The notes under the pieces: generated by a model
Seen by the model: the letters and a program-made list of their open reading frames with translations, nothing else
The model's database searches: none
What the model was told of the DNA's origin: nothing
Source of the DNA: Gemmatimonadaceae bacterium
Lineage (GTDB): Bacteria; Gemmatimonadota; Gemmatimonadetes; Gemmatimonadales; Gemmatimonadaceae
Length of the DNA stretch: 64,000 nucleotides
Assembly (NCBI GenBank): GCA_035496295.1
Contig: DATJET010000199.1
Location: forward strand, 8-64,007
Reading direction: 5' to 3'
Translations under genes and position numbers: made by a program
Shown: one piece after another, positions 1 to 63,959 of the stretch
Numbering within the stretch: the first letter of the stretch is position 1
Layout of the letters: each line of letters starts with the position of its first letter

Positions 1-902
1 TTGGCGCGGCGCGGGCGCGGCGCACGAGGCCGCCGCGCGACGAGAAAATCGTCGCGTCCTGGAACGGGCTCATGCTGCGCGCCCTCGCCGAAGCCGCCCG
101 AGCGCTCGAACATGATGCGGCTCGCGCACTCGCGATGCGCAACGGCTCGTTTCTCCTTCGCGAGCTCGTGCACGATGGGCGGGCGGCGCGCGTCTGGAAT
201 GCGGCGGGCGGCGCGTCGCACGCGCCAGGCTTTCTCGATGATCAGGCAGCGGTCGCCTTGGCCGCGATTGCCATGTATGAGCTCACCTTCGATGCATCGT
301 GGGTGGCCGAAGCGCGCCGGATGGCCGACGCCATGCTCCGGTGGTTCTGGGACGAACACACCGGGATGTTCTACGATACGGCACACGATCATGAAGCACT
401 CATCACGCGCCCGCGGGAAACGACGGACAACGCCACGCCGTCCGGGACCTCGCTTGCCGTGGAGCTGCTCCTTCGTCTGGGCGACCTGCTCGACGTGCCG
501 TCCTGGCGCCAGCACGCCGTCGACGTGCTGTCGAGCATCGGCAATGCGGTGGAGCGCTATCCGCTCGCATTCGGCCATCTGCTCACGGCGGCGGATGTCG
601 CCGTCTACGGACCCGTCGAAGTCGCGTTGTTAGGCGATCCCTCGAGTGTCGGATTCGTCGCGCTGCAGCGTGCCGCGGGGCAGCAATACGTGCCGGGCTT
701 GGTGCTCGCGGGCGGACGCGCCAACGGCGACATCGCGCTGCTGCGCAACCGCAAGCCGATCAACGACGCGGCGACGGCGTTCGTCTGCCGCCACTACGCG
801 TGCGACGCGCCGACGACGATTCCCGAAACGTTGAGCGCCCAACTCGAGCTCGCGGTAGATGCGCCGCCCGCCGATTCCGTTGGGCAGGCTCCGAACGGCT
901 AG
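1..902 (+). CDS. Thioredoxin-domain/DUF255 (YyaL/SSP411-like) protein, C-terminal part; 5' end lies outside the window
   Basis: The frame is open from nt 3. The translation ...DEKIVASWNGLMLRAL...FLDDQAAVALA...TDNATPSGTS...FVCRHYACDAPT resembles the alpha/alpha-barrel C-terminal half of YyaL-type proteins. Stop TAG at 900-902. Confidence 0.75.
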   Translation, partial: GAARARRTRPPRDEKIVASWNGLMLRALAEAARALEHDAARALAMRNGSFLLRELVHDGRAARVWNAAGGASHAPGFLDDQAAVALAAIAMYELTFDASWVAEARRMADAMLRWFWDEHTGMFYDTAHDHEALITRPRETTDNATPSGTSLAVELLLRLGDLLDVPSWRQHAVDVLSSIGNAVERYPLAFGHLLTAADVAVYGPVEVALLGDPSSVGFVALQRAAGQQYVPGLVLAGGRANGDIALLRNRKPINDAATAFVCRHYACDAPTTIPETLSAQLELAVDAPPADSVGQAPNG

Positions 903-908
903 GACCGA

Positions 909-1118
909 TCACAGATCGCCGCACGTCATCAGAATGGCGTGGCACTGGTTGCAGATGAGTTTGCATCGCACCCACGCGATATCCGCGGAACCGCAGATGT
1001 CGCAGGACGGCGGGTCCGGATCGGGCGGCGTCCGGGGCGGCCCGGTCTCGTGTTCTGGCATCGGCGAGGGTTCTTGCCCGTTATCGGACATTCGTGTCGT
1101 GTACGCGGTGGCGAACAC
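909..1118 (-). CDS. Small zinc-ribbon protein (CxxC...CxxC); start uncertain (GTG 1118 or ATG 1091)
   Basis: 60-69 aa ORF with high GC3. It carries the motif CDICG-x13-CNQCH. It converges on the upstream gene and ends 7 nt after that gene's stop. Confidence 0.4.
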   Translation of the reverse strand: MFATAYTTRMSDNGQEPSPMPEHETGPPRTPPDPDPPSCDICGSADIAWVRCKLICNQCHAILMTCGDL

Positions 1119-1273
1119 TGAGTGTTAGGCGTGGGCGCGACGGTGCGGCGAGGTCAACAATGAGCATGCTGTCGTAACGTAGTCGCCCGCTGCCTTCGCG
1201 CGAACGGCCGGATGCGACGCGCCCGCGCGACGTGGTCGCGCGGGCGCGTCGTATCTCTCGAGTGCTGGAGCGT

Positions 1274-2791: not shown

Positions 2792-4126
2792 TTAGGCGGC
2801 GGCGGGCGCGATCGTCCCGTCGCCGTCGCGCGTGATCGGGCTGCGCATCACCAGGTCGTACAGCAGCCACACTACGACGACGCCGAGGAAACAGTAGAGT
2901 GCACTGATCACGAGGAATGGTACGATGAGACCAGGCATGGGCGTCACCGAATCCGCTGTTCGCATGACGCCGTAGATCACCCACGGCTGTCGCCCGACTT
3001 CAGTGACCGTCCACCCGGCTTCGATGCAGATGAATCCCATGGGCGACGCGATGGTCACAGCGCGCATGAGCCACCGGTTGGCCGCGAGATCGCGCCGTCG
3101 CAACGCCTCGACAGCTACCCATATGCCGAGCAGCGCGAGGTACGTACCGAGTGCGACCATGATTTGGAAGGCAACGTGGACAACGGGGACCGGCGGCCAG
3201 TCGCGCCGTGGCACGGCATCCAGTCCCCGAACCACGGCGTGCGGATCGTGAAAGGCGAGCAGCGACAGTCCGCGGGGGATCTCGATTGCCCAACGTGTCC
3301 GTTGGGCATCGACGTCGGGAATACCGCCGATGCGGAGCGGCGCGCCGGACTCGGTGCGGAACTGCCCTTCCATGGCCGCGAGCTTCGGCGGCTGCCAGTG
3401 CGCGACGTATCGCGCGCTCACGTCACCCGAGATCGGCTGCACGATCGCAGCCGGCACTCCGACGATGAGTGCCACACCGAGGGCGCGCCGGTGGAACGCG
3501 TTGCGGTGGTCTCGAAGCAGCATGAAGCCATGAATGCCGGCCACCGCAAACCCCGTAGCGGCATAGGCGGCCACCAGCATGTGGAGCACTTCGGGAAACG
3601 CCGCGGGCGTCAGCATGGCAGCGAGTGGATCCACGTTCACGGGCGCGCCATTCTGCAGTTGAAATCCCGCCGGTGTATTCATCCACGCGTTCGCGATCAC
3701 GACGAACAGCGCTGAAGCCGCTCCGCTCACCGCGACGAGGAAGCCGGCCACGATGTGCGCGCGCGGCGAGATGCGCTGCCACCCGTACAGATACACGCCG
3801 AGAAAAATGGCCTCGGCGAAGAACGCAAAGCCTTCGAGCGAAAAGGGCATGCCGATGATGGCACCAGCGAATCGCATGAAGCCCGGCCACAGGAGGCCGA
3901 GCTCGAAGCTCAAGACCGTTCCGGATACGGCGCCGACGGCGAAGAGAATGGCGGTGCCTTTGGCCCAACGCTTCGCAAGCTCGAGGTACATCGCGTCGCC
4001 GGTGCGCCGCCACCGCGCCTCGGCGATGATCATGAGCACCGGCATGGCGATGCCGACGACGGCGAACAGGATGTGAAAACCGAGCGACACCGCCATTTGG
4101 GACCTGGCGGCGAGCACGTCGCCCAT
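2792..4126 (-). CDS. cydA: Cytochrome bd ubiquinol oxidase subunit I
   Basis: 444 aa beginning MGDVLAARSQMAVSLGFHILFAVVGIAMP, with WRRTGD, the Q-loop region and GWTVTEVGRQPW, all CydA hallmarks. The TAA stop lies inside a GTTAGGC copy. Confidence 0.9.
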   Translation of the reverse strand: MGDVLAARSQMAVSLGFHILFAVVGIAMPVLMIIAEARWRRTGDAMYLELAKRWAKGTAILFAVGAVSGTVLSFELGLLWPGFMRFAGAIIGMPFSLEGFAFFAEAIFLGVYLYGWQRISPRAHIVAGFLVAVSGAASALFVVIANAWMNTPAGFQLQNGAPVNVDPLAAMLTPAAFPEVLHMLVAAYAATGFAVAGIHGFMLLRDHRNAFHRRALGVALIVGVPAAIVQPISGDVSARYVAHWQPPKLAAMEGQFRTESGAPLRIGGIPDVDAQRTRWAIEIPRGLSLLAFHDPHAVVRGLDAVPRRDWPPVPVVHVAFQIMVALGTYLALLGIWVAVEALRRRDLAANRWLMRAVTIASPMGFICIEAGWTVTEVGRQPWVIYGVMRTADSVTPMPGLIVPFLVISALYCFLGVVVVWLLYDLVMRSPITRDGDGTIAPAAA

Positions 4127-5163
4127 CAGACTGCCTCGAACTCGAGCTCCAGATCGAGCGCCGGCGCGCGTTGCGTGAGCGCGTCGACGGCAATGCGATC
4201 GACTCCGGCTTGTGCGAAGCTTCGCACCGCATCGAGACGCACGTCACCGGTCACCTGCGTGTACACGCGCGACGATGCAACTTCCACGCATTCGCGGACG
4301 TGCAGCGGTGTCATGCCATCGAGCAGCACCGCATCCACGCCGGCAGCAACGGCAATGCGCACTTCGGCGGGGGAACGGCACGCGACCTCGATACGCGTGT
4401 GGTCCGACGCCAGTTCGCGCGTCCGTCGCACGACCATCGCCACATCGCGATTCGTGGCGGTGAGGTGGCTGTCGCGAATCTGCACGACGTCCAAGCCGTC
4501 GCGCCTCACGCCTAACGCGCCGCCGGCACGCGCCGCGTAGTGCTCGAGCTCCCGCAGGCCCGGCGTGGTCTTCCAGGTGTCGACGATACGGGCCGAGGTC
4601 CCGCGCACGGCCTCGACGTAGGACGCCGTGAGCGTCGCAATACCCGATAGGTGCCGGAGGAAGTTGAGTGCGACGCGCTCGGCCGACAGGATGGCGTGCG
4701 AGAGCGCGGTGATGCGCACGACTGGCGCGCCATCGGTCACGCGGCCGCCGTCGTCGATATCGACGCGCAGGGCGGCGTTGGAATCGAAGAGCCGGAACGC
4801 CGCGACGGCTAACGGAACGCCCGCCAGGACGCCCGATTGCCGCGCGACGATCGTCGCGTGCGCGCGTCGAGCGGACAAGACGCTCGCCGCGGTGGCGATG
4901 TCGTGGTAGGCGCCGTCTTCGAGCAAAGCCGCGCGAAGACACGCTTCGAGTTGTCGATCCGAGAGCGGGAACCCGAGGTGGTCGTCTTCGGCCACCGGCG
5001 CCCCGGTTTGGGGCGTCACGGCACGCGAGGCGCGTCGATCTCGGGATGGTCGCGGGAATCGGGATTCCAGGCCGCGGTCGCTGTTACGACTCGGCTCGAT
5101 GGAGCGCCGGCGGTCGCTTTCGAACCGTCCTTCCTCCGGCCCAAACATCTCGGGTGTGGTCAT
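4126..5163 (-). CDS. nadC: Nicotinate-nucleotide pyrophosphorylase (carboxylating), with ~60-aa N-terminal extension
   Basis: Contains LNFLRHLSGIATLT...IVDTWKTTPGLRELEHYA...GG and a QPRTase C-terminal TIM barrel. ATG 5163 is preceded by AGGAGG with an 8-nt spacer. Its TGA stop overlaps the cydA ATG (TGATG). Confidence 0.8.
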   Translation of the reverse strand: MTTPEMFGPEEGRFESDRRRSIEPSRNSDRGLESRFPRPSRDRRASRAVTPQTGAPVAEDDHLGFPLSDRQLEACLRAALLEDGAYHDIATAASVLSARRAHATIVARQSGVLAGVPLAVAAFRLFDSNAALRVDIDDGGRVTDGAPVVRITALSHAILSAERVALNFLRHLSGIATLTASYVEAVRGTSARIVDTWKTTPGLRELEHYAARAGGALGVRRDGLDVVQIRDSHLTATNRDVAMVVRRTRELASDHTRIEVACRSPAEVRIAVAAGVDAVLLDGMTPLHVRECVEVASSRVYTQVTGDVRLDAVRSFAQAGVDRIAVDALTQRAPALDLELEFEAV

Positions 5164-10637: not shown

Positions 10638-13249
10638 TGCGGCGTCTGTGCGCCGTCCGCGGCGCCGACCGCGCGCGGCGCCTCACCCACGCCTAACAGG
10701 TTGAGGAAGAGCCGCGACGCGCCGGGGTTGCCCGCCGGCAGCTGGCGGAACAGCGACAACGTGGTGTACACGTACATGCCCGCGCCCAACCGCGTCTCGA
10801 GGATCGCGCCCGAGTTGGGCGGCTCGTTGGGATCATTCATCGAGAGCGGCGTCGTGTAATGCGAATCGATGGTCGACGGCATGTACAAGGACCGCTCCTG
10901 CACCCATCCCGTCCAATCGTCCGCGGTGATGCGGTTGGGCCACGTGAGGACCGGGTCGTTAGGCACGAGAATCCGCACCGGCGCGTTTTCGTCGGTCACC
11001 CGGTTGGCCGGACGCGACAGCGAAATCGGATATGGCAGGCGCCCCGGTGCTGTCATCTCGTACTGGCCGTACTGCACCACCATGGTACCGCCATGCCGCA
11101 CCCAGTCGAGGAGCCGCGCATTGGCGGACGCGAGCTCCGGATGCGCCTCATAGGCACGCGTGCCGATCACCAAGGCGGTAAACCGAGACAGATCGACGGT
11201 CGCCAAGCGCGCCGGATCGATCACCGTGAGCGGAACGCCTAACTCCTGGAGCATGGGCGCCACGTTGTCACCCACGCCGCGCACGTACGCCACGTCGAGG
11301 CGCGGCGGCAGCGTCGCATCCACCGCCTCCAGCGTCAGCGCGGCGCGACGATACAGTTTCTGCGGACGAATGTGCGAGTACTCGATCGGCTGATATCCAA
11401 TCGCATACGTGTTGCCACCGCTGCGCGCGTCCGCGGCAATCTCGTAATGGCCGGGCGTGAGCTGACCGGTGATCGAGAACGACACTGTCGCAGTGGCGTC
11501 GAATCCGCTGAGATGGGCGGTGCGCGAGCTCGAATCAGCGTGCAGTCCTGCAGGCAACGTCAACGACACCTGCACATCGCGCGGCTCCGTCACGCCGGAC
11601 GTCACGTGGACCTGCACAGTGCGGTCGAGCGGGGTGTTCGCGCGCGCGAGCTCCACCGTACGATCGAGCGTCACCGCGACCGCCGGCACCACCATGAGCG
11701 GCCGTTCGACGGCGCCTCGTACCGGGTCACCGTAGCGGCGGACCACAGGCACCTCGGTCACGACCCGGCCACCGTCCAATGCAACGCGGACGCGAATACC
11801 CGCGTCGCGCACATCGTCGGAGCGACCATCGATCGGCACGCTGAACATGTCGCCCCGCCGCGGTGTGGCCAGCCACCACGGTTGCGACAGCGAATCGCCG
11901 CGCACGTAGACCGTATCCGTGTGCGCGCTGTCGGGCGCGACCGCAGTTTCGTGACCGGCCGACGACGACCCGGCCCCGCGAGTCCGTGCGGCGGCCATCG
12001 CCGAGGGCGACTCAACGGACACGCGCCCGGTACCACGGTTGTAGGTGGTCACCTCGACCGGAATCGAGTCGCCTAACGCGACCTCGTCGCGCTGCACCGT
12101 GGCCTCGATGGCGACGCCGCGCGCCATCAGCAGGGCGCGCGTCACGCGCTGGAGGCCGTCGGTGACCGACACCGACACATCGCCGTTCATGGACTGCGGC
12201 GCCGCTTGTGCGTCGGCGGCAAGTTGCGCGAGAGCGGCGTGCGCGCGCTCCAGGGCGGGCACGCCGGTGCTCGGATTGTACAGGCTGAGCGAGCGCCGCG
12301 CCTCCGCCGTCGCGGCGACGAGTCGTTCCACCGCAGCCTTATCGGCCGGCCGGCTGACTAACGGAAGCAGCCGGCGCCACGTGGTGTCGATGCCATCGAA
12401 GATCGAACGCTCCCGCTTCGCATCGGCGGGCGCCCGCTGGGCTCGCGACGCTTCCCGGGCGAGCGAGCCCGTCTGCGCACCGAGCCGCGCGACCACACCG
12501 AACCCTTGCGACTTGTGCTGCGACCGGCTTTCGGCGGCGATCTCGGCGAATGACTTGCCTAACACAGGGTCGAGTCCGCCTGCATTGTAGGTGAACGTTG
12601 CCCCTTCGCCGTTGAAATAGGATCGTGCACGATAGAATTTCAGTGGCGCCCAGGCGCCGTACCCTGCCGTCGCCGATCGCGGAAACCGCACCGTGTCCAT
12701 CGCCGCGTCGTACGCTTCGCGGGCGACGATGCCGGCCACTTGGTGCTGCCCATGCCCATCGCGCGGTGTGCCCGAGAACACGGACACGATCACCTGTGGC
12801 CGGAACGCGCGGACCACCGTCACCACATCCTGGAGCACCGAGTCGTGCGGCCAGTGCTGGAAGGACTCCGCGCTCGTCTTGGAGAAGCCGAAATCGTACG
12901 CGCGCGTGAAGTACTGATGGGCGCCGTCGATCCGGCGCGCGGCCAGCAGCTCCTCGGTGCGAATGACGCCTAACGCGTCGCCGAGCTCGTCGCCAATGAG
13001 GTTCTGGCCGCCGTCGCCCCGCGTGAGCGAGAGGTAGGCGACGTCGACGTGGTGGCCCCGCGTGAGCCACGTGATGAGACGGGTGTCTTCGTCATCCGGG
13101 TGGGCGCCGATCACGAGGACTCGCACCGAAACCGGCAACCCTTCCACGAGTTGACCGAGCGCGGCGGCGCCGCGGTCTTGCGCCTGCAAAGGATGCAGGG
13201 CTCCCGCGGCGATCAGGACAAGAGCGACGATGGCGTGGCGTACGTGCAT
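10634..13249 (-). CDS. Large secreted PIG-L/LmbE-family deacetylase
   Basis: Signal peptide, then VIGAHPDDED...YLSLTRGDGGQN...HGQH (the PIG-L zinc-site pattern). Long beta-rich middle region and a GATase1-like C-terminal domain. Confidence 0.75.
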   Translation of the reverse strand: MHVRHAIVALVLIAAGALHPLQAQDRGAAALGQLVEGLPVSVRVLVIGAHPDDEDTRLITWLTRGHHVDVAYLSLTRGDGGQNLIGDELGDALGVIRTEELLAARRIDGAHQYFTRAYDFGFSKTSAESFQHWPHDSVLQDVVTVVRAFRPQVIVSVFSGTPRDGHGQHQVAGIVAREAYDAAMDTVRFPRSATAGYGAWAPLKFYRARSYFNGEGATFTYNAGGLDPVLGKSFAEIAAESRSQHKSQGFGVVARLGAQTGSLAREASRAQRAPADAKRERSIFDGIDTTWRRLLPLVSRPADKAAVERLVAATAEARRSLSLYNPSTGVPALERAHAALAQLAADAQAAPQSMNGDVSVSVTDGLQRVTRALLMARGVAIEATVQRDEVALGDSIPVEVTTYNRGTGRVSVESPSAMAAARTRGAGSSSAGHETAVAPDSAHTDTVYVRGDSLSQPWWLATPRRGDMFSVPIDGRSDDVRDAGIRVRVALDGGRVVTEVPVVRRYGDPVRGAVERPLMVVPAVAVTLDRTVELARANTPLDRTVQVHVTSGVTEPRDVQVSLTLPAGLHADSSSRTAHLSGFDATATVSFSITGQLTPGHYEIAADARSGGNTYAIGYQPIEYSHIRPQKLYRRAALTLEAVDATLPPRLDVAYVRGVGDNVAPMLQELGVPLTVIDPARLATVDLSRFTALVIGTRAYEAHPELASANARLLDWVRHGGTMVVQYGQYEMTAPGRLPYPISLSRPANRVTDENAPVRILVPNDPVLTWPNRITADDWTGWVQERSLYMPSTIDSHYTTPLSMNDPNEPPNSGAILETRLGAGMYVYTTLSLFRQLPAGNPGASRLFLNLLGVGEAPRAVGAADGAQTPQ

Positions 13250-16474: not shown

Positions 16475-16490
16475 TGGCACCTACCCTGCT
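16475..16490 (+). promoter_or_regulatory. Sigma54 (-24/-12) promoter for pilA
   Basis: TGGCAC-ctacc-CTGCT compared with the consensus TGGCAC-N5-TTGCW. It lies about 78 nt upstream of the pilA ATG. Type IVa pilin genes are classically sigma54-dependent. Confidence 0.6.
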
Positions 16491-16567: not shown

Positions 16568-16954
16568 ATGCGCTTCACCGGAAAGAAGGGCTTCACGCTG
16601 ATCGAGCTGCTGATCGTTGTGGTCATCATCGGCATCCTCGCGGCGATCGCGATTCCGAAGTTCGCGAGCACGAAGGAGAAGGCGTATATCGCGTCGATGA
16701 AGTCGGACTTGAAGAACCTGGCGACGTCCGAGGAGGCGTACTACTCGGATAAGAACAGCTACTCGACCGACACGACCGCGTTGAACTTCAACACCTCGAC
16801 CGGCAACGTCCTCACGATCACGTCAACGGCGCTCACGACGGGCTGGGCCGGCAGCATCACCAACCCGCGCGTGACCAGCATCACGGGCTGCAAGATCGGC
16901 ACGGGCGCGGACACCACCGGTATCGGCGTCGAAGGCGTGGTGGTCTGCCAGTAA
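16568..16954 (+). CDS. pilA: Type IV pilin (major pilin, PilA-like)
   Basis: Prepilin leader MRFTGKKG followed by FTLIELLIVVVIIGILAAIAIPKF (N-methylation motif). C-terminal Cys pair C...C. RBS GGAGGA at 16554-16559. Confidence 0.9.
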   Translation: MRFTGKKGFTLIELLIVVVIIGILAAIAIPKFASTKEKAYIASMKSDLKNLATSEEAYYSDKNSYSTDTTALNFNTSTGNVLTITSTALTTGWAGSITNPRVTSITGCKIGTGADTTGIGVEGVVVCQ

Positions 16955-17021: not shown

Positions 17022-17519
17022 TCACGGCGGTCCCTGGGTGTGTCGCGCCGTGAGCGCGTTCGTCACCCGCTCCACGGTTGCGTCGTTAGGCGTGACGAGG
17101 ATCGCGATGAGGTTGCCGGAGAGGATGTAGTGCGGCGTGTCGAGTGTCGGCATGCCATGCAGCGTCGTGTCGAGGCCAGACGCGTCGCGCGTGCGTGCTC
17201 CGCGTCCTGAGTAGATGTACACGGTCAGTGTGCCTCGCCCGAGATGAAGCACGTGACCCACTTCGTGAAGCTCCGGCCGGTGCACGGTTTGCCCCGAGTC
17301 GGCGATCGCGAGTCCCGCCTCGCGCACGCGGCGCATCACTTCAGGCACCGACCACGCATCGCGCGCCAGCGCGACGCTGTCAGCAGGCTGGATCTCCGCT
17401 GCGGGTATGCCCGTTTGTGGGGGTGTATTCCCAGCGCGCGAGGATGACCCCTCGCTGTGCCCACACGCGACGACTGCGAATGCCAACGACATCGCGCATC
17501 GCGAGGACACCCGAGTCAT
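17022..17519 (-). CDS. Hypothetical lipoprotein
   Basis: Start MTRVSSRCAMSLAFAVVACGHSEG (lipobox VVAC). I recognise no family. It lies 10 nt downstream of the preceding gene. Confidence 0.5.
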   Translation of the reverse strand: MTRVSSRCAMSLAFAVVACGHSEGSSSRAGNTPPQTGIPAAEIQPADSVALARDAWSVPEVMRRVREAGLAIADSGQTVHRPELHEVGHVLHLGRGTLTVYIYSGRGARTRDASGLDTTLHGMPTLDTPHYILSGNLIAILVTPNDATVERVTNALTARHTQGPP

Positions 17520-22607: not shown

Positions 22608-22746
22608 GAACGGCGTTGGTCACGATGTGCCACATTGTGAGAAAGAATATACCCTGCACCGCCGGTAACGCATCGGCCGTGCATCGCGTCGCGCTTTCCG
22701 CTGTCGCGCGAACAGGATAGCTTCCGCGCTCCTTCAGACTGACTCG

Positions 22747-24391: not shown

Positions 24392-24393
24392 CG

Positions 24394-30821: not shown

Positions 30822-30844
30822 TCGTCGAGCGTTAGGCGGGCCGG

Positions 30845-35830: not shown

Positions 35831-35836
35831 CCGGCG

Positions 35837-39886: not shown

Positions 39887-40012
39887 ATGATCGCGACTCG
39901 TCGTTCGGAGCGCATGAATTCTGTCCAATCCGGCGTGGAACGTCGGTTGCTTTTGATGGGGCCGCCGGACGGATGAATCCGCTGTCCGGCGCGACTCCTT
40001 CAGAGAGGCACG

Positions 40013-40774: not shown

Positions 40775-40782
40775 CGCCTAAC
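40769..40782 (-). repeat. Back-to-back tandem pair GCCTAAC-GCCTAAC at the fliA/kinase-like convergent junction
   Basis: The first copy supplies the fliA TAA stop (40772-40774). The second copy supplies the opposite-strand TAG stop (40778-40780). Confidence 0.9.
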
Positions 40783-41473: not shown

Positions 41474-41535
41474 GGATTGCGGGTGAGGTCGAAGATAGCT
41501 CGGGCGCGTCGGGGCGCGAGGGTCGGAGGGTTGCC

Positions 41536-43966: not shown

Positions 43967-45185
43967 CCTGACGGACGCGCCTCGTATCGAATTCGACCAC
44001 GTGTGGAAGAAGTTCGCGCGAGGCGAGCTGCACGACAGCCTGCGCGATCTGGTGCCGGCGACGGTGCGCCGTCTCGCGGGGCGCATGCCGCCGCGCGACG
44101 AGCTGTCGGGTGAAGAGTTCTGGGCGGTGAGCGATGTGTCGTTCGAGGTGGGCCCGGGCGAAGCGCTCGGCATCCTCGGGCCTAACGGAGCGGGCAAGTC
44201 GACCATCCTCAAGCTGCTGACGCGGATTCTGGTGCCCACGCGCGGACAGTGCTCGATCACCGGGCGCGCGGGCGCGCTGATCGAAGTGGCGGCAGGCTTC
44301 CATCCCGATCTCACCGGGCGCGAGAACGTCTTTCTGCAGGGCGCCATCCTCGGCATGAAGCGGCGCGAGATCCGCAGCCGCTTCGACGAGATCGTGTCGT
44401 TCGCCGAGATCGAGGCATTCATCGACACGCCCGTCAAGCGGTATTCGAACGGCATGAACGCGCGGCTCGGCTTCGCGATCGCGGCGCACATCAGCCCCGA
44501 TGTGCTGGTCATCGACGAGGTGTTGTCGGTGGGCGATCTGCGATTTCAGCAGAAGGCGTTCGACCGGATACAGGAGATGTGCACGAGCGGTATTCCAGTG
44601 GTGCTCGTGTCGCATCAACTCGAGCGCATCGCGTCCCTGTGCACGCACGCGCTGCTGTTGGAGCGAGGGCGGGTGGCGAAGCGCGGCACGCCCACCGAGT
44701 GCATCGAGGCGTATCTCGAGATCTCGCGGAACGGCGACCCGGGGGCGGGACACACGTCGGGACTCACGTTCGATGCGCTGTCACTCGAGTCGCCGCTGCC
44801 GGTGCGATCGGGCGAGCGGGCGCACTTTCGATTGAGCGGCGCGGTGGCCCACGGCGGCGATGAGGCGTCGCGCGACTTCACGCTGCGTGTGCGGGCCCTG
44901 TCTACCGGTCGTCTGATCTTCAGTGCGTCGGCACAGGATTGCGGCGCGTCGATGCCCGCGGGCGGGCCGTTCGAGGTGGATGTGGAGTTGCAGTTCAACG
45001 TGGCGCCGGGTATCTACGGCCTCGAGCTCGCGGTATGGGATGCCGAGACGCGGCGGGACGTGGTGTCGGGGCCGGGCGTGACCGTGCAGGTGGAGACAGG
45101 CGCGCTCACGTTCTCGGGGACGTCGCATCTCTTACCGCGGGCGCGCGTGCTGCCCGTCGCAAAGGCAGCCGGCGCCTCTCGTTAG
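43959..45185 (+). CDS. Polysaccharide export ABC ATPase (Wzt/TagH-like) with C-terminal extra domain
   Basis: Walker A GPNGAGKST, signature YSNGMNARL, Walker B VLVIDEV. C-terminal beta-rich domain of about 150 aa. Overlaps the permease gene by 8 nt. The TAG stop lies inside a GTTAGGC copy. Confidence 0.85.
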   Translation: MSDLTDAPRIEFDHVWKKFARGELHDSLRDLVPATVRRLAGRMPPRDELSGEEFWAVSDVSFEVGPGEALGILGPNGAGKSTILKLLTRILVPTRGQCSITGRAGALIEVAAGFHPDLTGRENVFLQGAILGMKRREIRSRFDEIVSFAEIEAFIDTPVKRYSNGMNARLGFAIAAHISPDVLVIDEVLSVGDLRFQQKAFDRIQEMCTSGIPVVLVSHQLERIASLCTHALLLERGRVAKRGTPTECIEAYLEISRNGDPGAGHTSGLTFDALSLESPLPVRSGERAHFRLSGAVAHGGDEASRDFTLRVRALSTGRLIFSASAQDCGASMPAGGPFEVDVELQFNVAPGIYGLELAVWDAETRRDVVSGPGVTVQVETGALTFSGTSHLLPRARVLPVAKAAGASR

Positions 45186-45204
45186 GCGCTTTCCCTCTTC
45201 GACC

Positions 45205-46245
45205 GTGTCGACCGTGATTCCGCAGCTGCGCATCCGGACAGCAACCGCGAGCGATGCCGCCCGCCGGGCCTGCACGGTGGTGCATGCGTTAGGCGAGCGG
45301 CTGGAGCGCACCGTCCGGCCGCTGCTCGCCGGCGTCACGCGCGCCGCGCTGCTCGATGTGCCGACACACCAGAACGTTGGCGACAGCGCGATCCACCTGG
45401 GGACGCTCGCGCTGCTGCGACGCGCCGGCGTGCGCGTGTGCTACGCGTGCAGCCTCGAGACGTACGCGCCGGCCACGCTCGCCCGCCGGTTAGGCGGGGG
45501 TGTGATTCTGCTATCGGGCGGTGGAAACCTCGGCGACCTGTGGCCGCTGCACCAGCAGCTGCGCGAGCGCGTGCTGGCCGATTTCCCGGACGTGCCCGTG
45601 ATCCAGCTGCCGCAGTCGATGCATTTCCGCGAGCCGGCCGCGTTGGCGCGCGCACGGTCGGCGTTCGGCGCGCACCGGCGTCTCACGCTGCTGCTCCGCG
45701 ACGACCGCAGTCTCGCGGCGGCGCGCACCGCCTTCGACGCGCCGAGCGACGTGTGTCCCGATCTGGCGTTCGCGTTAGGCCCGCTGCCGAGGCCGGTCGC
45801 GCCGACGGCGCGGGTCGTGTGGCTCGCTCGGCGCGACCGCGAGGCCGCGCCGCACGCGCACGCCGGCAGCTACCCGACGTTCGATTGGGCGCTGCGGCCG
45901 CGCTCCGCCCTATCCCGCGTCGAGCGATTCGGCCACACGTTGACCTCTGTGCACCCGCGCCTCGAGCCGTATGCGCAAGGTCCGTTGAGAGGGTTGAGCA
46001 TCATCGCGTCGCGGGAGCGTGTGCGCAGCGGATGCACCATGCTCGCCGCCGGCGACACCGTGATCACGGACCGCCTCCACGGGCACATCCTGAGCCTCAT
46101 GCTCGGCAGCCCGCACGCGGTGCTCGACAACAGCTACGGCAAGGTGCGCTCGTTCTACGAAACGTGGACCCGCGACGCGCCGATCGTGCACTGGGCGGAG
46201 ACGCCGGCGGAGGCTGTGCGAACGGTGGAGCAATGGACGTCGTGA
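45205..46245 (+). CDS. Polysaccharide pyruvyl transferase family protein
   Basis: Contains GDSAIHLGT, GGGNLGDLW and TDRLHGHILSLMLGSPHAVLDNSYGK (PS_pyruv_trans pattern). GTG start. Confidence 0.75.
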   Translation: MSTVIPQLRIRTATASDAARRACTVVHALGERLERTVRPLLAGVTRAALLDVPTHQNVGDSAIHLGTLALLRRAGVRVCYACSLETYAPATLARRLGGGVILLSGGGNLGDLWPLHQQLRERVLADFPDVPVIQLPQSMHFREPAALARARSAFGAHRRLTLLLRDDRSLAAARTAFDAPSDVCPDLAFALGPLPRPVAPTARVVWLARRDREAAPHAHAGSYPTFDWALRPRSALSRVERFGHTLTSVHPRLEPYAQGPLRGLSIIASRERVRSGCTMLAAGDTVITDRLHGHILSLMLGSPHAVLDNSYGKVRSFYETWTRDAPIVHWAETPAEAVRTVEQWTS

Positions 46246-47168
46246 CCGCGCGTGCCGCGCCGGCGGTGGATGTCAGCGTCATCGTGTGCACCCGGAATCG
46301 CAGCGACGCGATGGCGCGGCTGCTCGAGCAATTGGAGCGGCTCGTCGTGCCAACCGGCCTGCGCTGGGAGCTGATCGTCGTCGACAATGCGTCCACGGAC
46401 GACACGGCGTCGATGCTCGCATCGCTCCAGAGCCCGTTGCCGATGCGCGTCGTGCGCGAAGGCATTCCCGGCGTTTCGCGGGCGCGCAACGCGGGGATCG
46501 CGGCTGCGCGCGGCGATCTCCTGCTCTTCACCGACGACGACTGCCTCCCTGATGCGCGGTGGCTCACGACCATCCACGAGGAATTCGCTCGCGCCCCGTC
46601 GCTTGGCGTGTTAGGCGGGCGGGTGGAGTTGTTCGACCTGCGCGACCGGCCGACCACGACGCGCACGTCGCGGACGCGCGGCGAGATCTCGGCGTCGTTC
46701 AATCTGGACGGGATCATCGGCTGCAATCTGGCGTTCCGGCGGTCGGCGCTCGCGGTGACCGGTCCGTTCGATGTTGGGTTAGGCGGCGGCACCGGCGCCG
46801 GCGCCGGCGAAGACGTGGATTTGGTCTACCGCAGCCTGCGCGCCGGCTTGCGTGTCGAGTATTCGCCGGATGCGCTGGTGTATCACAACCACGGGCGGCG
46901 CACGGACGCGCAGGTGCGGGCGCTCACCCGCGCGTACACCCGCGCGCGCGGCGCGTTGTTCTGCAAGTACGTGATGGCCGGCGATCGCGGCATCCTGCCG
47001 CGCATCCGGCAGGACCTCTTCTATTACGGCCGCTCGCTGGCCGTCGACGTGCGGGCCGGGCGGTTCCCGACGCGGGTGGTGCGGCACTATTACCACCTCG
47101 GCCTCGGCGCGATGTACTGGCTCCGCCACCTCCTAACGCAGGGCCGCCGGGGGCGCGACGCCGCCTAG
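46233..47168 (+). CDS. Family 2 glycosyltransferase
   Basis: Contains VSVIVCTRNRS, VVDNASTDDT and LLFTDDDCLP (DxD motif). Overlaps the upstream gene by 13 nt. Confidence 0.85.
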   Translation: MDVVTARAAPAVDVSVIVCTRNRSDAMARLLEQLERLVVPTGLRWELIVVDNASTDDTASMLASLQSPLPMRVVREGIPGVSRARNAGIAAARGDLLLFTDDDCLPDARWLTTIHEEFARAPSLGVLGGRVELFDLRDRPTTTRTSRTRGEISASFNLDGIIGCNLAFRRSALAVTGPFDVGLGGGTGAGAGEDVDLVYRSLRAGLRVEYSPDALVYHNHGRRTDAQVRALTRAYTRARGALFCKYVMAGDRGILPRIRQDLFYYGRSLAVDVRAGRFPTRVVRHYYHLGLGAMYWLRHLLTQGRRGRDAA

Positions 47169-61303: not shown

Positions 61304-61384
61304 CTGTCACGCATTTCGATGTGGGATTACGAGTCGCGTCGCACATCGATTGGACGGTGCGCGGGCCTCGAACGCTTACGGCGG

Positions 61385-62725
61385 CTAGAGGCTCCAGCCC
61401 GACCGGTACTCGGTCCGCACGTATTCGTCGGGTACCTTCGCGTTCGTCACCTCGCCCGTCTCTGGGTTCAGGTCCAGCGGCCGATTCATCCGGATGGCGA
61501 GGTTGCCGAGCAGCACCATCTGCGTGAGCGGTCCAGCGTGACCGGCGAAATTGGATCCGGCCGGCGGACCGCCCTTGCACGCACGAATCCATTCCTGATA
61601 CACGCCGGGCGTCCGCGCATACTTCTCGGGCAGTGGATGCGCCGTGAATTCCGCCTGGCGCTTGGGATCGAGCAGGCGCACAGCTTCGCCGTAACAGTCG
61701 GCGAGCAGTTTGCCGTCGCTGCCGATCCACAGTTGTGTCCCCACGTCGGCGTAGCCCGGCCAGTCGAATTCGGGCGCGAGCTCCACGGGCCGCGCTTCGG
61801 CCAATCCACCATCGTGCCACACGGCGCGCACGGGTGCGCGCGCACCCCGCGCGCCGAACTCATACACGATGCGCGACAGCTTCGGCGCCGTTTCCGGGTA
61901 GAGCTTCGTCGTTTCGGCCTCGATGTGCACGGGGAAGCCGAGGCCTAACGTCCAGAACGCGGCGTCCATGGCGTGCGCAGCGATGTCGCCTAACGCGCCG
62001 CAGCCGAAGTCCCACCAGCCGCGCCACGTGAACGGCGCGTACGCCGGATGGTACGGGCGCGACGGCGCCGGCCCGAGCCAGAGGTCCCAGTCGAGCCACG
62101 GCGGCACCTCGTACGCCTCGAGCGGACGCTCCAATCCCTGCGGCCAGATCGGCCGATCGGTCCAGTAGTGCACTTCCCGCACCGTGCCGATCGCACCGGC
62201 TTCGACCAGCTCGCGGATCAGTCGCGTGCCGGCGCCCGCGTGACCCTGGTTGCCCATTTGCGTCGCGACCTTGGTGCGCGCGGCAGCATCCATTATCGCT
62301 CGCACTTCGGTGAGCGTGCGGGCGAGCGGCTTCTGGCAGAAGACGTGCTTGCCGTGTTTCAACGCGAGCATCACGGCGGCGGCATGCGAGTGATCGGGAA
62401 TCGTCACCGTGACGGCGTCGATATTCTTGCCCTCTTTGTCGAGCATCTCGCGGTAGTCGCGATACTGTTTTGCTTTGGGGAACCGCCGGAACGACGTCTC
62501 AGCGCTGTGGAGATCGACGTCGCACAGGGCGTAGATGTTCTCGGTGCTCACACCCTGCACATCGCTCTCGCCTTTCCCGCCGACGCCAATGCAGGCGATG
62601 TTGAGCGTGTCGCTGGGCGCTCGATAGCCGCGGCCGAGCACGTGGCGCCGCACGATGGTGAAGGCCGCGCCGGCGAGTGCGACGTCGCCCAGGAATTCGC
62701 GGCGGGAAACCGGGTCAGCGGTCAT
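61385..62725 (-). CDS. Tat-signal Gfo/Idh/MocA family oxidoreductase
   Basis: Signal SRREFLGDVALAGAAF, then IACIGVGGKG (Rossmann fold). 446 aa. Confidence 0.8.
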   Translation of the reverse strand: MTADPVSRREFLGDVALAGAAFTIVRRHVLGRGYRAPSDTLNIACIGVGGKGESDVQGVSTENIYALCDVDLHSAETSFRRFPKAKQYRDYREMLDKEGKNIDAVTVTIPDHSHAAAVMLALKHGKHVFCQKPLARTLTEVRAIMDAAARTKVATQMGNQGHAGAGTRLIRELVEAGAIGTVREVHYWTDRPIWPQGLERPLEAYEVPPWLDWDLWLGPAPSRPYHPAYAPFTWRGWWDFGCGALGDIAAHAMDAAFWTLGLGFPVHIEAETTKLYPETAPKLSRIVYEFGARGARAPVRAVWHDGGLAEARPVELAPEFDWPGYADVGTQLWIGSDGKLLADCYGEAVRLLDPKRQAEFTAHPLPEKYARTPGVYQEWIRACKGGPPAGSNFAGHAGPLTQMVLLGNLAIRMNRPLDLNPETGEVTNAKVPDEYVRTEYRSGWSL

Positions 62726-62738
62726 GGGATGAGCTGCG

Positions 62739-63959
62739 TTAGGCGGCCATCGCCGCGGCAGGTTTCGGTTCTTCCGTCTGTGTGCGCGGACGGAAGAGCA
62801 GCGCGAACAGCACGAAGATCACGGCCGCGCCGCACGCCGGCACGAGCCACACCGATCGCCAATCGTGCACCCCGCCGGGCAACCGGTACTTATCCACGAC
62901 GGGTCCAGACAAGAGTGAGCCAATGAACAGGCCGACGCCCTGTGTGATGAACGCCAGGAATCCCTGCGCCGCCGCGCGGATCGACACGCTCGCGCGCTGA
63001 TCGACGTAGATCTGCCCCGTGACGAAGAAGAAATCGTAGCACACACCGTGGAGGATGATGCCGGCGTACAGCATCCACACGTTCACGGTTACGTTGCCGA
63101 ACGCGAACAACAGGTACCGCACCGCCCACGCCGCCATGCCCAGCAGGAGGATCCGCTTCACGCCTAACCGGGACAGCGCCCACGGCAAGAGCAGCATGAA
63201 GCCGATCTCGAAGAACTGGCCCAACGTCATCTTGGCGGCCGCGTTCTGAAGCCCGATCTCGTTCAGGAACGGGTTGGTGAACGTGTAGTAGAACTGCAGT
63301 GGGATGCACAGCAGGAACGAGCCGAGAATGAACACGGCGAACGCGTTGTCCTTGAGCAGCGAGAGCGCGTCGAGGCCTAACACATCGCGCGCGGTGATTT
63401 TCTTGCCCGCGGCGTGGGGCGGCGTGTGCGGCAGCGCGAACGAGAATATGCCCAACACGATCGATGCGGCCGCGGCCAACTGCAGCGGCACCGCCGTCGC
63501 CTCGAGCTTGAGGATGCCGACGATGAGTCCGGCCACGATCCAGCCAATGGTGCCCAACACGCGCACGAGCGGAAACTCGCGCGTCGGGTCGCTCATGTGG
63601 TCGAACGAAATCGAGTTGGTGAGCGCCAGCGTGGGCATGTAGCAGAGCGCGTACACGATGAGCACAACGTAAAACGCGCCGAATGCATGCATCGTCGACG
63701 CAATCCAGAGCACGACACCGCCCACGATGTGCAGCAGCGCGAGGATGCGCTCGGTGGCGAAGAATCGGTCGGCCACCATTCCGACGAAAAACGGAGAGAT
63801 CATCGCCGCGATGGCCGTCGCACCGTAGGCGAGACCGACCTGCGTGCCGTCGAACTTGAGCGATGTCCCCAAGTACGTGCCCATGGTGACGAACCACGCG
63901 CCCCAGACGAAATACTCGAGGAACATCATCGTCGAGAGCTTGGCTCGAACCGCGGTCAT
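62739..63959 (-). CDS. MFS transporter, nucleoside:H+ symporter (NupG/XapB-like) family
   Basis: Begins KLSTMMFLEYFVWGAWFVTMGTYL, as in Nuc_H_symport. 12 TM segments. The TAA stop lies inside a GTTAGGC copy. Confidence 0.75.
   Translation of the reverse strand: MTAVRAKLSTMMFLEYFVWGAWFVTMGTYLGTSLKFDGTQVGLAYGATAIAAMISPFFVGMVADRFFATERILALLHIVGGVVLWIASTMHAFGAFYVVLIVYALCYMPTLALTNSISFDHMSDPTREFPLVRVLGTIGWIVAGLIVGILKLEATAVPLQLAAAASIVLGIFSFALPHTPPHAAGKKITARDVLGLDALSLLKDNAFAVFILGSFLLCIPLQFYYTFTNPFLNEIGLQNAAAKMTLGQFFEIGFMLLLPWALSRLGVKRILLLGMAAWAVRYLLFAFGNVTVNVWMLYAGIILHGVCYDFFFVTGQIYVDQRASVSIRAAAQGFLAFITQGVGLFIGSLLSGPVVDKYRLPGGVHDWRSVWLVPACGAAVIFVLFALLFRPRTQTEEPKPAAAMAA

Follow-up and report, generated by a model that had tools for sequence, protein, structure and literature searches.

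GTTAGGC, a hyper-abundant genomic word of some Gemmatimonadaceae and a possible DNA-uptake or self-recognition tag

The window, by which we mean the whole stretch of 64,000 nucleotides that was analysed, holds 90 exact copies of CGTTAGGC, a hyper-abundant genomic word of Gemmatimonadaceae. Read on the + strand, 51 of them are GTTAGGC and 39 are GCCTAAC, and our recount reproduced both the number and the coordinates (629-63381) given by an earlier sequence-only reading of this DNA. The copies, and the genes and sites among which they lie, are the following.

629, 1124, 2791, 5992, 6376, 8707, 10056, 10958, 15113, 15302, 15558, 17085, 18881, 20315, 23229, 23832, 25739, 27629, 29351, 29642, 29900, 30116, 30404, 30831, 31922, 32153, 32816, 33487, 34873, 35020, 37347, 37548, 40324, 43729, 45181, 45288, 45489, 45774, 46610, 46778, 47699, 48482, 50832, 51933, 52777, 53544, 54415, 57338, 57502, 60726, 62738 (starts, each +6), + strand: copies of GTTAGGC
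4510, 7175, 7991, 8812, 10691, 11237, 12071, 12557, 12968, 14399, 18660, 19520, 24475, 25312, 26936, 28064, 31462, 35680, 35825, 40769, 40776, 42052, 44180, 47912, 50254, 52178, 54798, 56668, 57989, 59075, 59894, 60182, 60278, 60923, 61258, 61943, 61988, 63162, 63375 (starts, each +6), - strand: copies reading GCCTAAC on the + strand
1124-1130, + strand: intergenic copy
16568-16954, + strand: gene for a type IV pilin of the major type, carrying a prepilin N-methylation motif (context only)
17085-17091, + strand: copy 3' of the pilin gene and a terminator-like hairpin, in weakly coding sequence, scored as non-coding
28737-30821, + strand: CLC chloride-channel gene with five in-frame copies (29351, 29642, 29900, 30116, 30404)
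30831-30837, + strand: intergenic copy flanked by the CLC channel gene (stop at 30821) and a - strand OsmC-like gene
31922-31928, + strand: intergenic copy 10 nt upstream of the ATG (31938) of an epimerase gene
35825-35831, - strand: copy that provides the TAA stop codon of an amidase gene (34127-35830, + strand)
40769-40782, - strand: tandem direct pair GCCTAACGCCTAAC between two convergent genes

Copies in four intergenic spacers had been noted earlier; four copies are truly intergenic, and three further copies, missing from that account, supply stop codons. Besides the copy at the end of the amidase gene, these are the two members of the tandem pair, the single such pair in the window as had been said: the copy at 40769 forms the TAA stop of a sigma-70-family gene (39977-40774, + strand) and that at 40776 the TAG stop of an ORF on the opposite strand (40778-41743). 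Both are conserved in the relative L082, and the intergenic copies at 30831 and 31922 are conserved in L081 as well as L082. The pilin gene, itself free of the word, is preceded by a sigma-54-type TGGCAC-N5-CTGC at 16475-16489, in agreement with the sequence-only reading.

At the computed GC content of 67.0% (about 68% had been assumed), a zero-order model predicts about 7 copies in the window, dinucleotide shuffles predict 2.35 +/- 1.5 with a maximum of 6 in 100 shuffles, and an order-2 Markov model with the word masked predicts 1.03. Codon-aware nulls, which had been proposed as a check and were run here on the CDS of the window, set the 77 copies observed in confident CDS against 3.5 expected when synonymous codons are shuffled within each gene, 2.3 when codon order is shuffled, and 1.8 when the protein is kept and codons are drawn from usage outside the word. 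The more than 10-fold over-representation claimed earlier is thus 22-43x even under these nulls, and across word-rich material the word is enriched 25-90x over chance. Nor is it local to the window, for both the cultured Gemmatirosa kalamazoonensis and relatives with independent public assemblies carry it at high density. Copies do occur in almost every gene longer than 1 kb, three such genes (2792-4243, 21267-22619 and 38198-39730) having none; that nearly every TTAG tetramer belongs to the word was an overstatement, since the exact word accounts for 71% and GTTAG for 94%; and the spacing, described as irregular, is a little more regular than chance would give (CV 0.80, P=0.017). We agree that there is no orientation skew along the window and that the word, mostly coding and devoid of any longer conserved flank, is no REP or MITE element. 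As the sequence-only reading had supposed, the literature search found no paper that treats the heptamer as a motif.

The immediate flanks are nevertheless biased, with G at +8 in 56 of the 90 window copies and C at -1 in 55. The count at +8 had been reported correctly and attributed to codon composition, an explanation that is not fully sufficient, given that G follows the word in 65% of cases against 38% for matched Leu-Gly controls (P=0.006). The motif is accordingly slightly longer than the bare heptamer it had been taken for, about C-GTTAGGC-R. Related forms exist as well: GTTGGGC, one step from the word, is 4-5x enriched throughout the clade, and the relative L006 carries a shifted form, CGTTAGG(C/T). 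TTAG is nearly missing from word-free relatives (0-8 per 22 kb), so that a word built on this otherwise almost absent tetramer could serve as a tag with very low background.

By reading frame, the copies in the window fall into five classes:

Sense xxG-TTA-GGC (Leu-Gly): 54 of 90 copies
Sense GTT-AGG-C (Val-Arg): 4 of 90 copies
Antisense xxG-CCT-AAC (Pro-Asn): 17 of 90 copies
Antisense xGC-CTA-ACx (Leu-Thr): 8 of 90 copies
Non-coding or on stop codons: 7 of 90 copies

With respect to gene direction the copies are strongly skewed (58 sense, 25 antisense), a feature that had been overlooked and that arises because only certain dipeptides can host the word. All four stop-free classes of frame and orientation are enriched (100x, 46x, 19x and 36x), the antisense ones 19-36x. 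Rare codons are pressed into service: TTA is very rare outside the word (22 codons), and GGC follows 50 of the 71 TTA codons in the window. The word encodes 27% of the Leu-Gly and 39-41% of the Pro-Asn dipeptides of the window, and 11% and 32%, respectively, of those of Gemmatirosa; saturation on the antisense strand is thus as high as on the sense strand, which fits recognition of duplex DNA. In L006 and L027 the four frame classes are used about evenly. GTTAGGC is a signal in double-stranded DNA and not a peptide, codon-pair or RNA signal. Most of its copies arise through synonymous changes, at whichever dipeptide is able to accommodate them (Leu-Gly and Val-Arg, or on the other strand Pro-Asn and Leu-Thr), and copies arise in spacers and over stop codons, too.

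With the CLC gene we recovered relatives that form a graded series and mapped orthologous sites; word density rises along the CLC tree from 0 through 0.23, 0.57 and 1.14 to 1.4-1.55 per kb. Where the window has the word, word-free relatives have GCTGGGC, GCTCGGC or GTTGGGC, that is, ordinary Leu-Gly codons, and toward the window lineage gains of the word exceed losses. At 87% nucleotide identity, exact conservation is 85% for copies and 35% for matched controls; at 80% identity the figures are 71% and 5-20%. Existing copies are therefore retained far better than matched sequence, and build-up has been progressive within lineages. Within the family, three distinct branches carry this one word at high density, and each of them has sister lineages that lack it. 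Word-free sisters have an otherwise syntenic genome, and orthologous positions hold the same words in independent assemblies (ENA, NCBI, JGI). It is natural and lineage-restricted, belonging to some lineages of one family.

G. kalamazoonensis KBS708, a cultured strain with a finished PacBio genome, offers a complete 1.1-Mb replicon, plasmid 1, in which 892 copies are present against 10 expected (89x). The leading strand holds 52.0% of them (P=0.24), which bears out the earlier exclusion of KOPS and makes Chi unlikely; density is equal on both strands and on two megaplasmids. Spacing is again more even than under random placement (CV 0.854 versus 0.999 +/- 0.033). Non-coding DNA is the densest compartment (1.5 copies per kb versus 0.65 in coding DNA), convergent spacers have the lowest density of spacers (1.09 per kb), and inverted pairs of the word within 60 nt number 3 on 1.1 Mb. 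The longest stretches devoid of the word are the RepA/ParA module (10.9 kb) and two SusC/SusD loci of lower GC content, which are probably foreign. The SMRT methylome published for KBS708 lists RGATCY, ATGCAC and CCAGN7TCA as its only methylated motifs (PMC3974934), so that GTTAGGC is absent from it; this weakens the earlier suggestion of a modification target as far as modifications other than 5-methylcytosine are concerned.

What such a word is for can be answered only tentatively. We lean toward a tag for DNA uptake or self-recognition that molecular drive would have spread, a possible reading rather than a probable one. A sequence-specific DNA-binding protein would read the word on either strand, and its most likely use would be that of a DUS/USS-type tag: word-bearing fragments would be bound preferentially by the import machinery of related cells (type IV pilus, ComEA, ComEC), then taken up and recombined, such that word-creating alleles would be passed on more often than word-destroying ones. 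A drive of this kind could fill every position that coding constraints tolerate, despite the rarity of TTA, CTA, CCT and AGG codons. DUS are depleted in mobile DNA, and the absence of the word from the rep/par module and the probable foreign loci is reminiscent of this. The enrichment of GTTGGGC together with the density series resembles the graded drive described for uptake sequences by Bakkali (PMC1939737), and DUS and USS, too, are known to show a sense/antisense bias within genes (PMC2346458). However, terminators harbour about half of all DUS/USS copies, frequently arranged as inverted pairs (bioRxiv 10.1101/2025.10.24.684340), and the low density in convergent spacers with only 3 inverted pairs counts against an uptake tag. 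So, in our assessment, do a distribution patchier than that of DUS dialects, with the same word in three branches that have word-free sisters, and a core of 7-9 bp; DUS measure 10-12 bp and USS 9 bp plus flanks. Moreover, conservation, even spacing and absence from foreign DNA are equally expected for a selected protein-binding site, as argued for HIP1. The pilin gene, raised earlier as a hint of competence, is indeed present, but it is of the ordinary major-pilin type and says little on the matter. Type IV pilin genes occur in the window and on the Gemmatirosa plasmid; the 64-kb window has no other competence gene, and neither a competence gene beyond the major-type pilin nor a ComP-like receptor was seen in the material covered, which did not include chromosomes. 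The literature search on natural transformation returned nothing on the phylum Gemmatimonadota, and we know of no species in it that is naturally transformable.

The main rival, in our judgement rather unlikely, is that the word is, like HIP1, the site of an abundant cytoplasmic DNA-binding protein (nucleoid-organising, or concerned with topology or repair) under ordinary selection and with no role in transfer. HIP1 enrichment is reported as 15-300x and its sites are conserved beyond matched controls (PMC5861425); GTTAGGC, at 25-89x, lies inside this range and is conserved likewise, and its even spacing, equal density on both strands and two megaplasmids, lack of ties to terminators and variant forms in related lineages (CGTTAGG(C/T) in L006, enriched GTTGGGC) would all suit such a site. 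Yet per-site selection would have to fix rare codons at more than one site per kb, which is hard for a single binding site, and the function would be dispensable, as the word-free sisters are otherwise syntenic; besides, the word is non-palindromic, and KBS708 has no linked methylation at it, unlike the association of HIP1 with a methyltransferase. It is conceivable, if improbable, that the word is instead a positive self-marker for a nuclease or recombination system, following the logic of Chi without its polarity, whereby word-rich DNA would be spared or repaired and word-free DNA (phage, plasmid) degraded. Its shortness and asymmetry, its absence from the rep/par module and the probable foreign SusC/SusD loci, and the high contrast between self and foreign that a scarce tetramer provides are in line with this. 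Chi sites, though, are co-oriented with replication (compare 52.0% leading strand, P=0.24), few-fold enriched and built from common codons, unlike a word of rare codons enriched 25-89x, and we know of no orientation-independent self-marker of this kind.

Highly doubtful is the idea that near-matches are turned into a functionless word by a biased, sequence-specific process of gene conversion or repair that resembles very-short-patch repair and may be tied to 5-methylcytosine. One-step variants are enriched, many sites look stepwise (GCTGGGC to GTTGGGC to GTTAGGC), and m5C is compatible with the SMRT data; but the conversions hit word positions 2, 3, 4, 6 and 7 with differing base changes, which is beyond a single mismatch-specific enzyme, VSP-type effects are below 2-fold, far from 25-89x, and copies are conserved between genomes, not merely replenished. 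A translational or RNA signal, in which a regulatory pause would be set by the in-frame rare-codon pair TTA-GGC (Leu-Gly) and the other copies would be incidental, might be read into the 54 of 90 sense in-frame G-TTA-GGC copies and the 22 TTA codons outside the word. Antisense and intergenic enrichment contradict it and leave it a very slight chance: enrichment of the antisense classes is 19-36x, saturation is higher for Pro-Asn than for Leu-Gly, non-coding DNA is densest in Gemmatirosa, and the four classes are about even in L006 and L027. Finally, we found nothing to suggest chance, an artefact of assembly or an engineered insertion limited to the window, to which we give virtually no credence: it is refuted by the shuffles (0 of 100 above 6 copies), by the same words at orthologous positions in independent ENA, NCBI and JGI assemblies, and by the density in the finished PacBio genome of a cultured strain.

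Taken together, GTTAGGC resembles the "self tags" by which some bacteria recognise their own DNA, here in soil bacteria, and the word-rich cultured strain KBS708 opens both its reader and its function to testing. Among known systems, the raw letters of GTTAGGC are met in papers on DtxR, where they lie inside the 19-bp palindromic operator of the DtxR/IdeR iron box (TTAGGTTAGGCTAACCTAA); here, however, the word stands alone and has no palindromic partner, its density is 0.8-1.5 per kb and most copies lie within genes, and we reject a DtxR/IdeR regulon operator, the resemblance being coincidental. With Chi (RecBCD/AddAB) and KOPS/SRS (FtsK/SpoIIIE) it shares the character of a short, asymmetric, over-represented chromosomal word, but it lacks their co-orientation with replication (52.0% leading strand), is enriched an order of magnitude more and uses rare rather than common codons. 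HIP1 (GCGATCGC) of cyanobacteria is comparably over-represented within and between genes, with sites conserved beyond matched controls and variant words in some lineages; GTTAGGC differs in being non-palindromic, in having no linked methyltransferase motif detected, and in belonging to another phylum and there to some lineages of one family only. The DUS of Neisseriaceae and USS of Pasteurellaceae, collectively DUES, differ from this candidate tag in that the latter is found in Gemmatimonadota, has a core of 7-9 rather than 9-12 bp, is not concentrated in terminators and hardly ever forms inverted pairs, and is patchily distributed, with the same word in separate branches. Like it, however, they are short and non-palindromic, occur about once per kb on both strands without replication skew, are written into coding sequence in tolerant frames with a sense/antisense bias inside genes, have one-mismatch forms enriched in a graded way and slightly different forms in related lineages, are depleted in mobile or foreign DNA, and are spaced more evenly than random.

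All 90 copies of GTTAGGC that the sequence-only reading had counted by hand (51 as GTTAGGC and 39 as GCCTAAC on the + strand) were recovered by exact pattern search. One hundred dinucleotide-preserving shuffles of the window, which is 67.0% GC, yielded 2.35 +/- 1.5 copies with a maximum of 6, and an order-2 Markov model with the word masked predicted 1.03 copies in the whole window. Because the sub-words of the heptamer are equally enriched, a maximal-order Markov ranking of k-mers is unable to flag it, and low-order and codon-aware nulls were used instead. Three codon-aware nulls were run on 45 confidently called coding sequences (58.9 kb), inside which 77 copies lie. Shuffling synonymous codons within each gene, a procedure that retains the word's own inflated TTA usage, gave an expectation of 3.5; shuffling codon order gave 2.3; and drawing codons from usage outside the word with the proteins fixed gave 1.8. 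A codon-aware null had been set beforehand as the decisive test of the proposed hyper-abundance, and the word clearly withstands it. Depending on the choice of null, over-representation in the window amounts to 22-87x. This is abundance of the DUS/USS type (the uptake words of Neisseriaceae and Pasteurellaceae), namely about one copy per kb on both strands, above both composition and codon expectation. Spacing between copies in the window is also more even than random (CV 0.80, P=0.017). Two places in the window stand out locally:

40769-40782, two abutting copies of the word, forming the TAA and TAG stops of two convergent genes 3 bp apart
45082-47168, peak word density within the window; the ORF of a pyruvyl-transferase (45082-46245) overlaps a second, long one (45438-47168), in which the glycosyltransferase-2 domain begins only at residue 280

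The second interval represents either two adjacent genes, or a frameshift, or a miscalled start.

Because one strand of the word reads TAG and the opposite strand TAA, only two frames per orientation are open to it inside genes. All four coding classes, counted on curated gene calls and compared with expectations computed from the protein sequences and background codon usage, are occupied, each with an enrichment of 19-100x.

Coding classes of the word in the window (frame; dipeptide; orientation of the word; copies; expected)
xxG-TTA-GGC; Leu-Gly; sense; 54; 0.54
GTT-AGG-C; Val-Arg; sense; 4; 0.09
xxG-CCT-AAC; Pro-Asn; antisense; 17; 0.92
xGC-CTA-ACx; Leu-Thr; antisense; 8; 0.22

These classes account for 83 of the 90 copies; three more serve as stop codons, and four are intergenic, as had been reported. 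TTA codons are otherwise avoided by the genome, and 50 of the 71 in the window are followed directly by GGC. TTA-GGC encodes 50 of 183 Leu-Gly dipeptides (27%) and G-CCT-AAC 16 of 41 Pro-Asn dipeptides, and the word is found in 7 of 11 Leu-Thr dipeptides preceded by an xGC codon but in only 5 of 165 Val-Arg dipeptides, a class that requires about three base changes; the more synonymous changes a dipeptide class requires, the lower is its saturation. Inside genes there are 58 sense and 25 antisense copies, an excess overlooked when the word was first described as orientation independent. It reflects the abundance of the host dipeptides and no strand preference, because the antisense Pro-Asn class is saturated at least as strongly as the sense Leu-Gly class. 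By arithmetic from the dipeptide counts, Pro-Asn is about 1.8 times commoner in the window than amino-acid composition predicts, and ortholog mapping places one Pro-Asn word site at Pro-Thr in a word-free relative. From this excess and this ortholog, it would seem that amino-acid changes, besides synonymous ones, were partly recruited to the word.

The preference for G at +8, which the sequence-only reading put down to codon composition, goes beyond it: G follows 65% of Leu-Gly copies against 38% of matched Leu-Gly controls (P=0.006). Similarly, 71% of Pro-Asn copies are preceded by C at -1, compared with 20% of the controls (P=0.006). Conservation around the word is limited to -1 and +8 to +10, both in the window and on plasmid 1 of Gemmatirosa (see below). 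One-mismatch forms in the window are enriched at positions 4, 6 and 7 (GTTGGGC 4.3x, GTTAGTC 14x, GTTAGGA 16x), with no tolerance seen at positions 1, 2, 3 and 5. The word is thus a signal of duplex DNA, acting at neither the protein nor the RNA level.

SucA (2-oxoglutarate dehydrogenase) assigns the window to Gemmatimonadaceae, its top match, at 71% identity, coming from a soil MAG. Of 80 fetched loci, few are dense in the word: L027, from DASYRX01, holds 13 copies in 8.5 kb and L006, from JBJMNO01, 14 copies of CGTTAGG in 22.8 kb, both with the four frame classes in roughly equal use; enrichment is weak in L056 and L041. Homologues of the window's CLC channel (28737-30821, + strand) supplied a graded series of relatives, including many 90-95% identical contigs of the soil clade.

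Word density in relatives recovered with the CLC channel (identities relative to the window)
L081; 95% amino-acid identity, 87% nucleotide; 1.55 per kb
L082; 90% amino-acid identity, 80% nucleotide; 1.14 per kb
L084; 85% amino-acid identity, about 74% nucleotide; 0.57 per kb
L086; 78% amino-acid identity; 0.23 per kb
L085, L088, L087, L089; 74-78% amino-acid identity, about 70% nucleotide (L085); 0

The CLC tree unites the word-rich genomes in a single clade, within which density climbs toward the window; in the SucA tree dense loci are spread over three separate branches, and every one of these adjoins word-free lineages. Genomes of word-free sisters include GCA_036278895.1, GCA_036378095.1 and GCA_035760785.1. 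Relatives therefore share the word, which is dense in L081, L082, L027, L006 and the Gemmatirosa plasmids and hence not confined to the window. Ortholog mapping reveals plain Leu-Gly codons (GCTGGGC, GCTCGGC, GTTGGGC) at window word sites in word-free relatives. Between the window and L081, the exact 7-mer is kept at 85% of word sites in the Leu-Gly frame, compared with 35% for non-word Leu-Gly and 36% for same-phase 7-mers; between the window and L082, the respective values are 71%, 5% and 20%. Sites also turn over, in that 10 window sites are absent from L082, 3 sites of L082 are absent from the window, and only 3 of the 9 aligned sites of L084 are shared. GTTGGGC, one step from the word, is 4-5x enriched across the window clade, without enrichment outside it. 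The word is thus made chiefly by synonymous change, is kept once made and accumulates within lineages. It is built on TTAG, a tetramer near-absent elsewhere in the family: TTAG/CTAA occurs 0-8 times per 22 kb in L085, L087-L089, L010, L014 and L018 against a dinucleotide expectation of about 20 (in the 21.9 kb of L085, TTAG is missing altogether), and CTAG is likewise strongly depleted in word-free relatives.

Other 7-mers considered as alternative dialects of the word were rejected. ACAACGT and AACACGAT (L003, L005, L008, L016) stem from tandem protein repeats of 276 bp (92 codons), which several MAGs of the family carry in a large ORF located upstream of sucA, and which give rise to spurious over-represented 7-mers. 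GGGAAGCG stems from intergenic repeat arrays in L085 and L088, a word-free sister lineage, where units of ~27 bp have the consensus of about CGCCCTGCGGGAAGCGGCGCGCT; it occurs 18-21 times per 22 kb versus 2.3 expected, clustered between genes at 27-bp spacing.

276-bp tandem repeats: L003:618-3378, L005:1664-3320, L016:227-2987, L008:1456-3940
27-bp intergenic arrays: L085:283-2565 and 11913-12188, and also L088

This REP-like 27-bp element is a phenomenon distinct from the dispersed heptamer.

A protein search of the plasmid collection brought up two megaplasmids of the cultured Gemmatirosa kalamazoonensis KBS708. Plasmid 1 (NZ_CP007129.1; 1,106,233 bp, 72.7% GC), analyzed complete, carries 892 copies (456 on the + and 436 on the - strand) versus 10 expected (89x), and a 50-kb sample of plasmid 2 carries 38, a density as on plasmid 1. 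With C at -1 in 87%, G or A at +8 in 81% and C at +10 in 60% of copies, the motif on plasmid 1 is C-GTTAGGC-R. Its frame classes repeat the pattern of the window (Leu-Gly 349, Pro-Asn 167, Val-Arg 91, Leu-Thr 40), and the word encodes 32% of all Pro-Asn dipeptides. Density is 1.5 per kb in non-coding versus 0.65 per kb in coding DNA; divergent spacers hold 1.87, tandem spacers 1.51 and convergent spacers 1.09 copies per kb, the last being the lowest non-coding value. Among called genes, 87 copies provide stop codons, making up 58 of 107 TAA and 29 of 187 TAG stops, and the word thereby shapes stop-codon usage on this replicon. More generally, it skews codon usage, accounting for the majority of TTA codons and, in Gemmatirosa, for more than half of the TAA stops. 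On plasmid 1, units of 12 or 15 nt that each hold the word are further repeated in short tandem arrays, for example (GTTAGGCGCGGC)n:

NZ_CP007129.1 1005343-1005436, word-bearing short array
NZ_CP007129.1 735995-736061, word-bearing short array
NZ_CP007129.1 911592-911613, word-bearing short array

The word thus occasionally seeds microsatellite-like repeats. In addition, the copy pairs 22095/75155 and 53015/1101653 have identical 30-bp flanks and lie about 53 kb apart, which fits the 53-kb tandem duplication described in the KBS708 genome paper.

Cumulative GC skew places the origin of plasmid 1 at 1.023 Mb, where genes for a RepA-like protein and for ParA lie, and its terminus at 0.349 Mb. 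The leading strand carries just 464 of the 892 copies (52.0%, P=0.24), with 54% of coding bases running in the direction of replication. Chi sites, recognized by RecBCD/AddAB, are preferentially co-oriented with replication, and the KOPS/SRS words of FtsK/SpoIIIE are strongly polar toward the terminus, with most copies on the leading strand; the share observed here therefore excludes polarity of the KOPS type and disfavors a Chi-type function, in agreement with the misfit proposed earlier. Spacing on plasmid 1 is evener than random (CV 0.854 versus 0.999 +/- 0.033). The word is thus spread fairly evenly and is indifferent to the direction of both replication and transcription once coding constraints are allowed for. 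The longest word-free stretch is the 10.9-kb rep/par module, where 8.8 copies are expected; second and third in length come SusC/SusD pairs, whose GC content is lower (0.69). Probable mobile or foreign DNA thus lacks the word, which in practice sets resident apart from foreign DNA in word-rich genomes.

The window encodes ordinary functions in housekeeping and transport (cytochrome bd oxidase, SucA, MetK, CLC channel, ABC/MFS/MacB transporters) together with histidine kinases, a sigma-54 activator of the NtrC type and a factor of the sigma-70 family; it contains no mobile elements. The features related to the pilus are as follows:

16475-16489, sigma-54-type TGGCAC-N5-CTGC near the pilin gene
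16568-16954, type IV pilin of the major type, with the usual prepilin N-terminus and a pair of C-terminal cysteines; no word copy
38198-39730, NtrC-type sigma-54 activator gene; no word copy across 1.5 kb
NZ_CP007129.1 about 631100-631640 (+), pilin whose mature N-terminus is near-identical to that of the window pilin (GFTLIELLIVVVIIGILAAIAIPKF...)

The major pilin of KBS708 therefore sits on the megaplasmid. The suggestion that a sigma-54-driven pilin is compatible with natural competence holds insofar as a type IV pilus is encoded, but it bears on competence no further; besides this major-type pilin, the 64-kb window contains no competence genes. The activator, which shares the window with the pilin's sigma-54-type promoter, may be a PilR-like regulator.

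How could such a word arise? Word-creating changes hit several positions with differing substitutions, so that the agent must recognize the whole word, and this points to a sequence-specific DNA-binding protein rather than to a context-dependent mutational or mismatch-repair bias. Biased repair, perhaps m5C-linked, is for this reason improbable. To our knowledge, only the uptake biases of DUS and USS lift a non-palindromic word so high against codon preference, and on these grounds an uptake tag of the same type appears to us the best explanation, tentative as it is and somewhat short of an even chance. In the known systems, preferential import plus recombination constitutes a molecular drive (PMC1939737). 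Here, a putative protein reading the entire word would favor the import of word-bearing DNA, which would then be recombined, and the resulting drive would raise the word against codon preference. The shorter core, the missing link to terminators and inverted repeats, and the fact that only a major pilin was seen among competence genes in the window and on plasmid 1 all weaken this explanation. Its main rival, a HIP1-like binding site held by selection (HIP1 being the hyper-abundant palindrome of cyanobacteria), fits all our comparative measurements equally well; healthy word-free sisters with syntenic genomes argue somewhat against an essential architectural role, and we regard such a site as the less likely of the two, though still to be reckoned with.

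Appreciably less probable is a positive self-mark that a nuclease or recombination system would recognize in either orientation, whereby a putative intracellular protein would license or protect resident DNA and offer no cover to incoming DNA poor in the word, such as plasmid modules, foreign islands or phage. Such a mark would have arisen, or become active, several times among Gemmatimonadaceae and, if real, would represent self/non-self discrimination distinct from restriction-modification, CRISPR and polar Chi recognition. The earlier option of a modification target, for a restriction-modification system or an orphan methylase, finds no support, since the SMRT methylome of KBS708 lists three N6-methyladenine motifs (RGATCY, ATGCAC and CCAGN7TCA) and not the word, m5C lying outside those data (PMC3974934); an m6A/m4C target was rejected on this basis. 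Also rejected were a DtxR box as the identity of the word, a codon-pair signal, to which we give hardly any credence, and an engineered artifact, artifacts of any kind being more improbable still.

In the searchable literature we found no description of the heptamer as a motif, primer and operator matches only, nor anything connecting Gemmatimonadota with uptake sequences or competence; the motif may have been described elsewhere. We know of hyper-abundant words from very few bacterial groups, namely DUS from Neisseriaceae, USS from Pasteurellaceae and HIP1 from cyanobacteria, and whether they originate by drive or by selection is still argued. GTTAGGC adds a new sequence and a new phylum. Its close syntenic relatives range from zero copies to saturation, and therefore its build-up can be reconstructed site by site and the reader gene traced by phylogenetic profiling. 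Since it is carried by a cultured strain with a finished genome and SMRT kinetics deposited as GEO GSE55390 (KBS708, ATCC BAA-2150), uptake, binding and modification are open to immediate testing. As an uptake tag, should it prove to be one, it would be without precedent outside Proteobacteria and would imply natural transformation in an abundant, poorly cultured soil phylum.

Among known systems, REP and MITE elements exceed 20 bp, are intergenic and have conserved, usually palindromic flanks. They were rejected, as the sequence-only reading had proposed, because nothing is conserved past -1 and +8 to +10 and most window copies are coding (83/90). DUS and USS are defined by the preferential import or transforming ability of word-bearing DNA; their hosts possess a type IV pilus, ComEA, ComEC, DprA and a receptor that recognizes the word specifically, for instance the minor pilin ComP, and the words show no replication-strand polarity and are depleted in recently acquired or mobile DNA. 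GTTAGGC resembles them in its absence of replication polarity and in its largest gaps, the rep/par module and the lower-GC SusC/SusD pairs. It differs from them in its shorter core and in lacking a terminator preference, with no inverted pair in the window and only three within 60 nt on plasmid 1; terminators contain about half of all DUS/USS copies, frequently paired as inverted repeats, and a 2025 survey confines uptake sequences to Neisseriaceae and Pasteurellaceae (bioRxiv 10.1101/2025.10.24.684340). Orientation bias inside genes is known for DUS/USS as well (PMC2346458).

HIP1 is a palindromic octamer associated with methyltransferases recognizing its core. GTTAGGC is not palindromic, its reverse complement being GCCTAAC, and it is not among the N6-methyladenine motifs published for the KBS708 methylome. 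In its retention beyond matched controls (85% vs 35%, 71% vs 5-20%) the word is nevertheless like HIP1, where enrichment and conservation occur in the same combination and the function is unknown (PMC5861425). Because the terminator feature is absent, and because DUS/USS are defined by uptake bias and our word is known from sequence, we keep it apart from the DUS/USS family and file it with the hyper-abundant genomic words.
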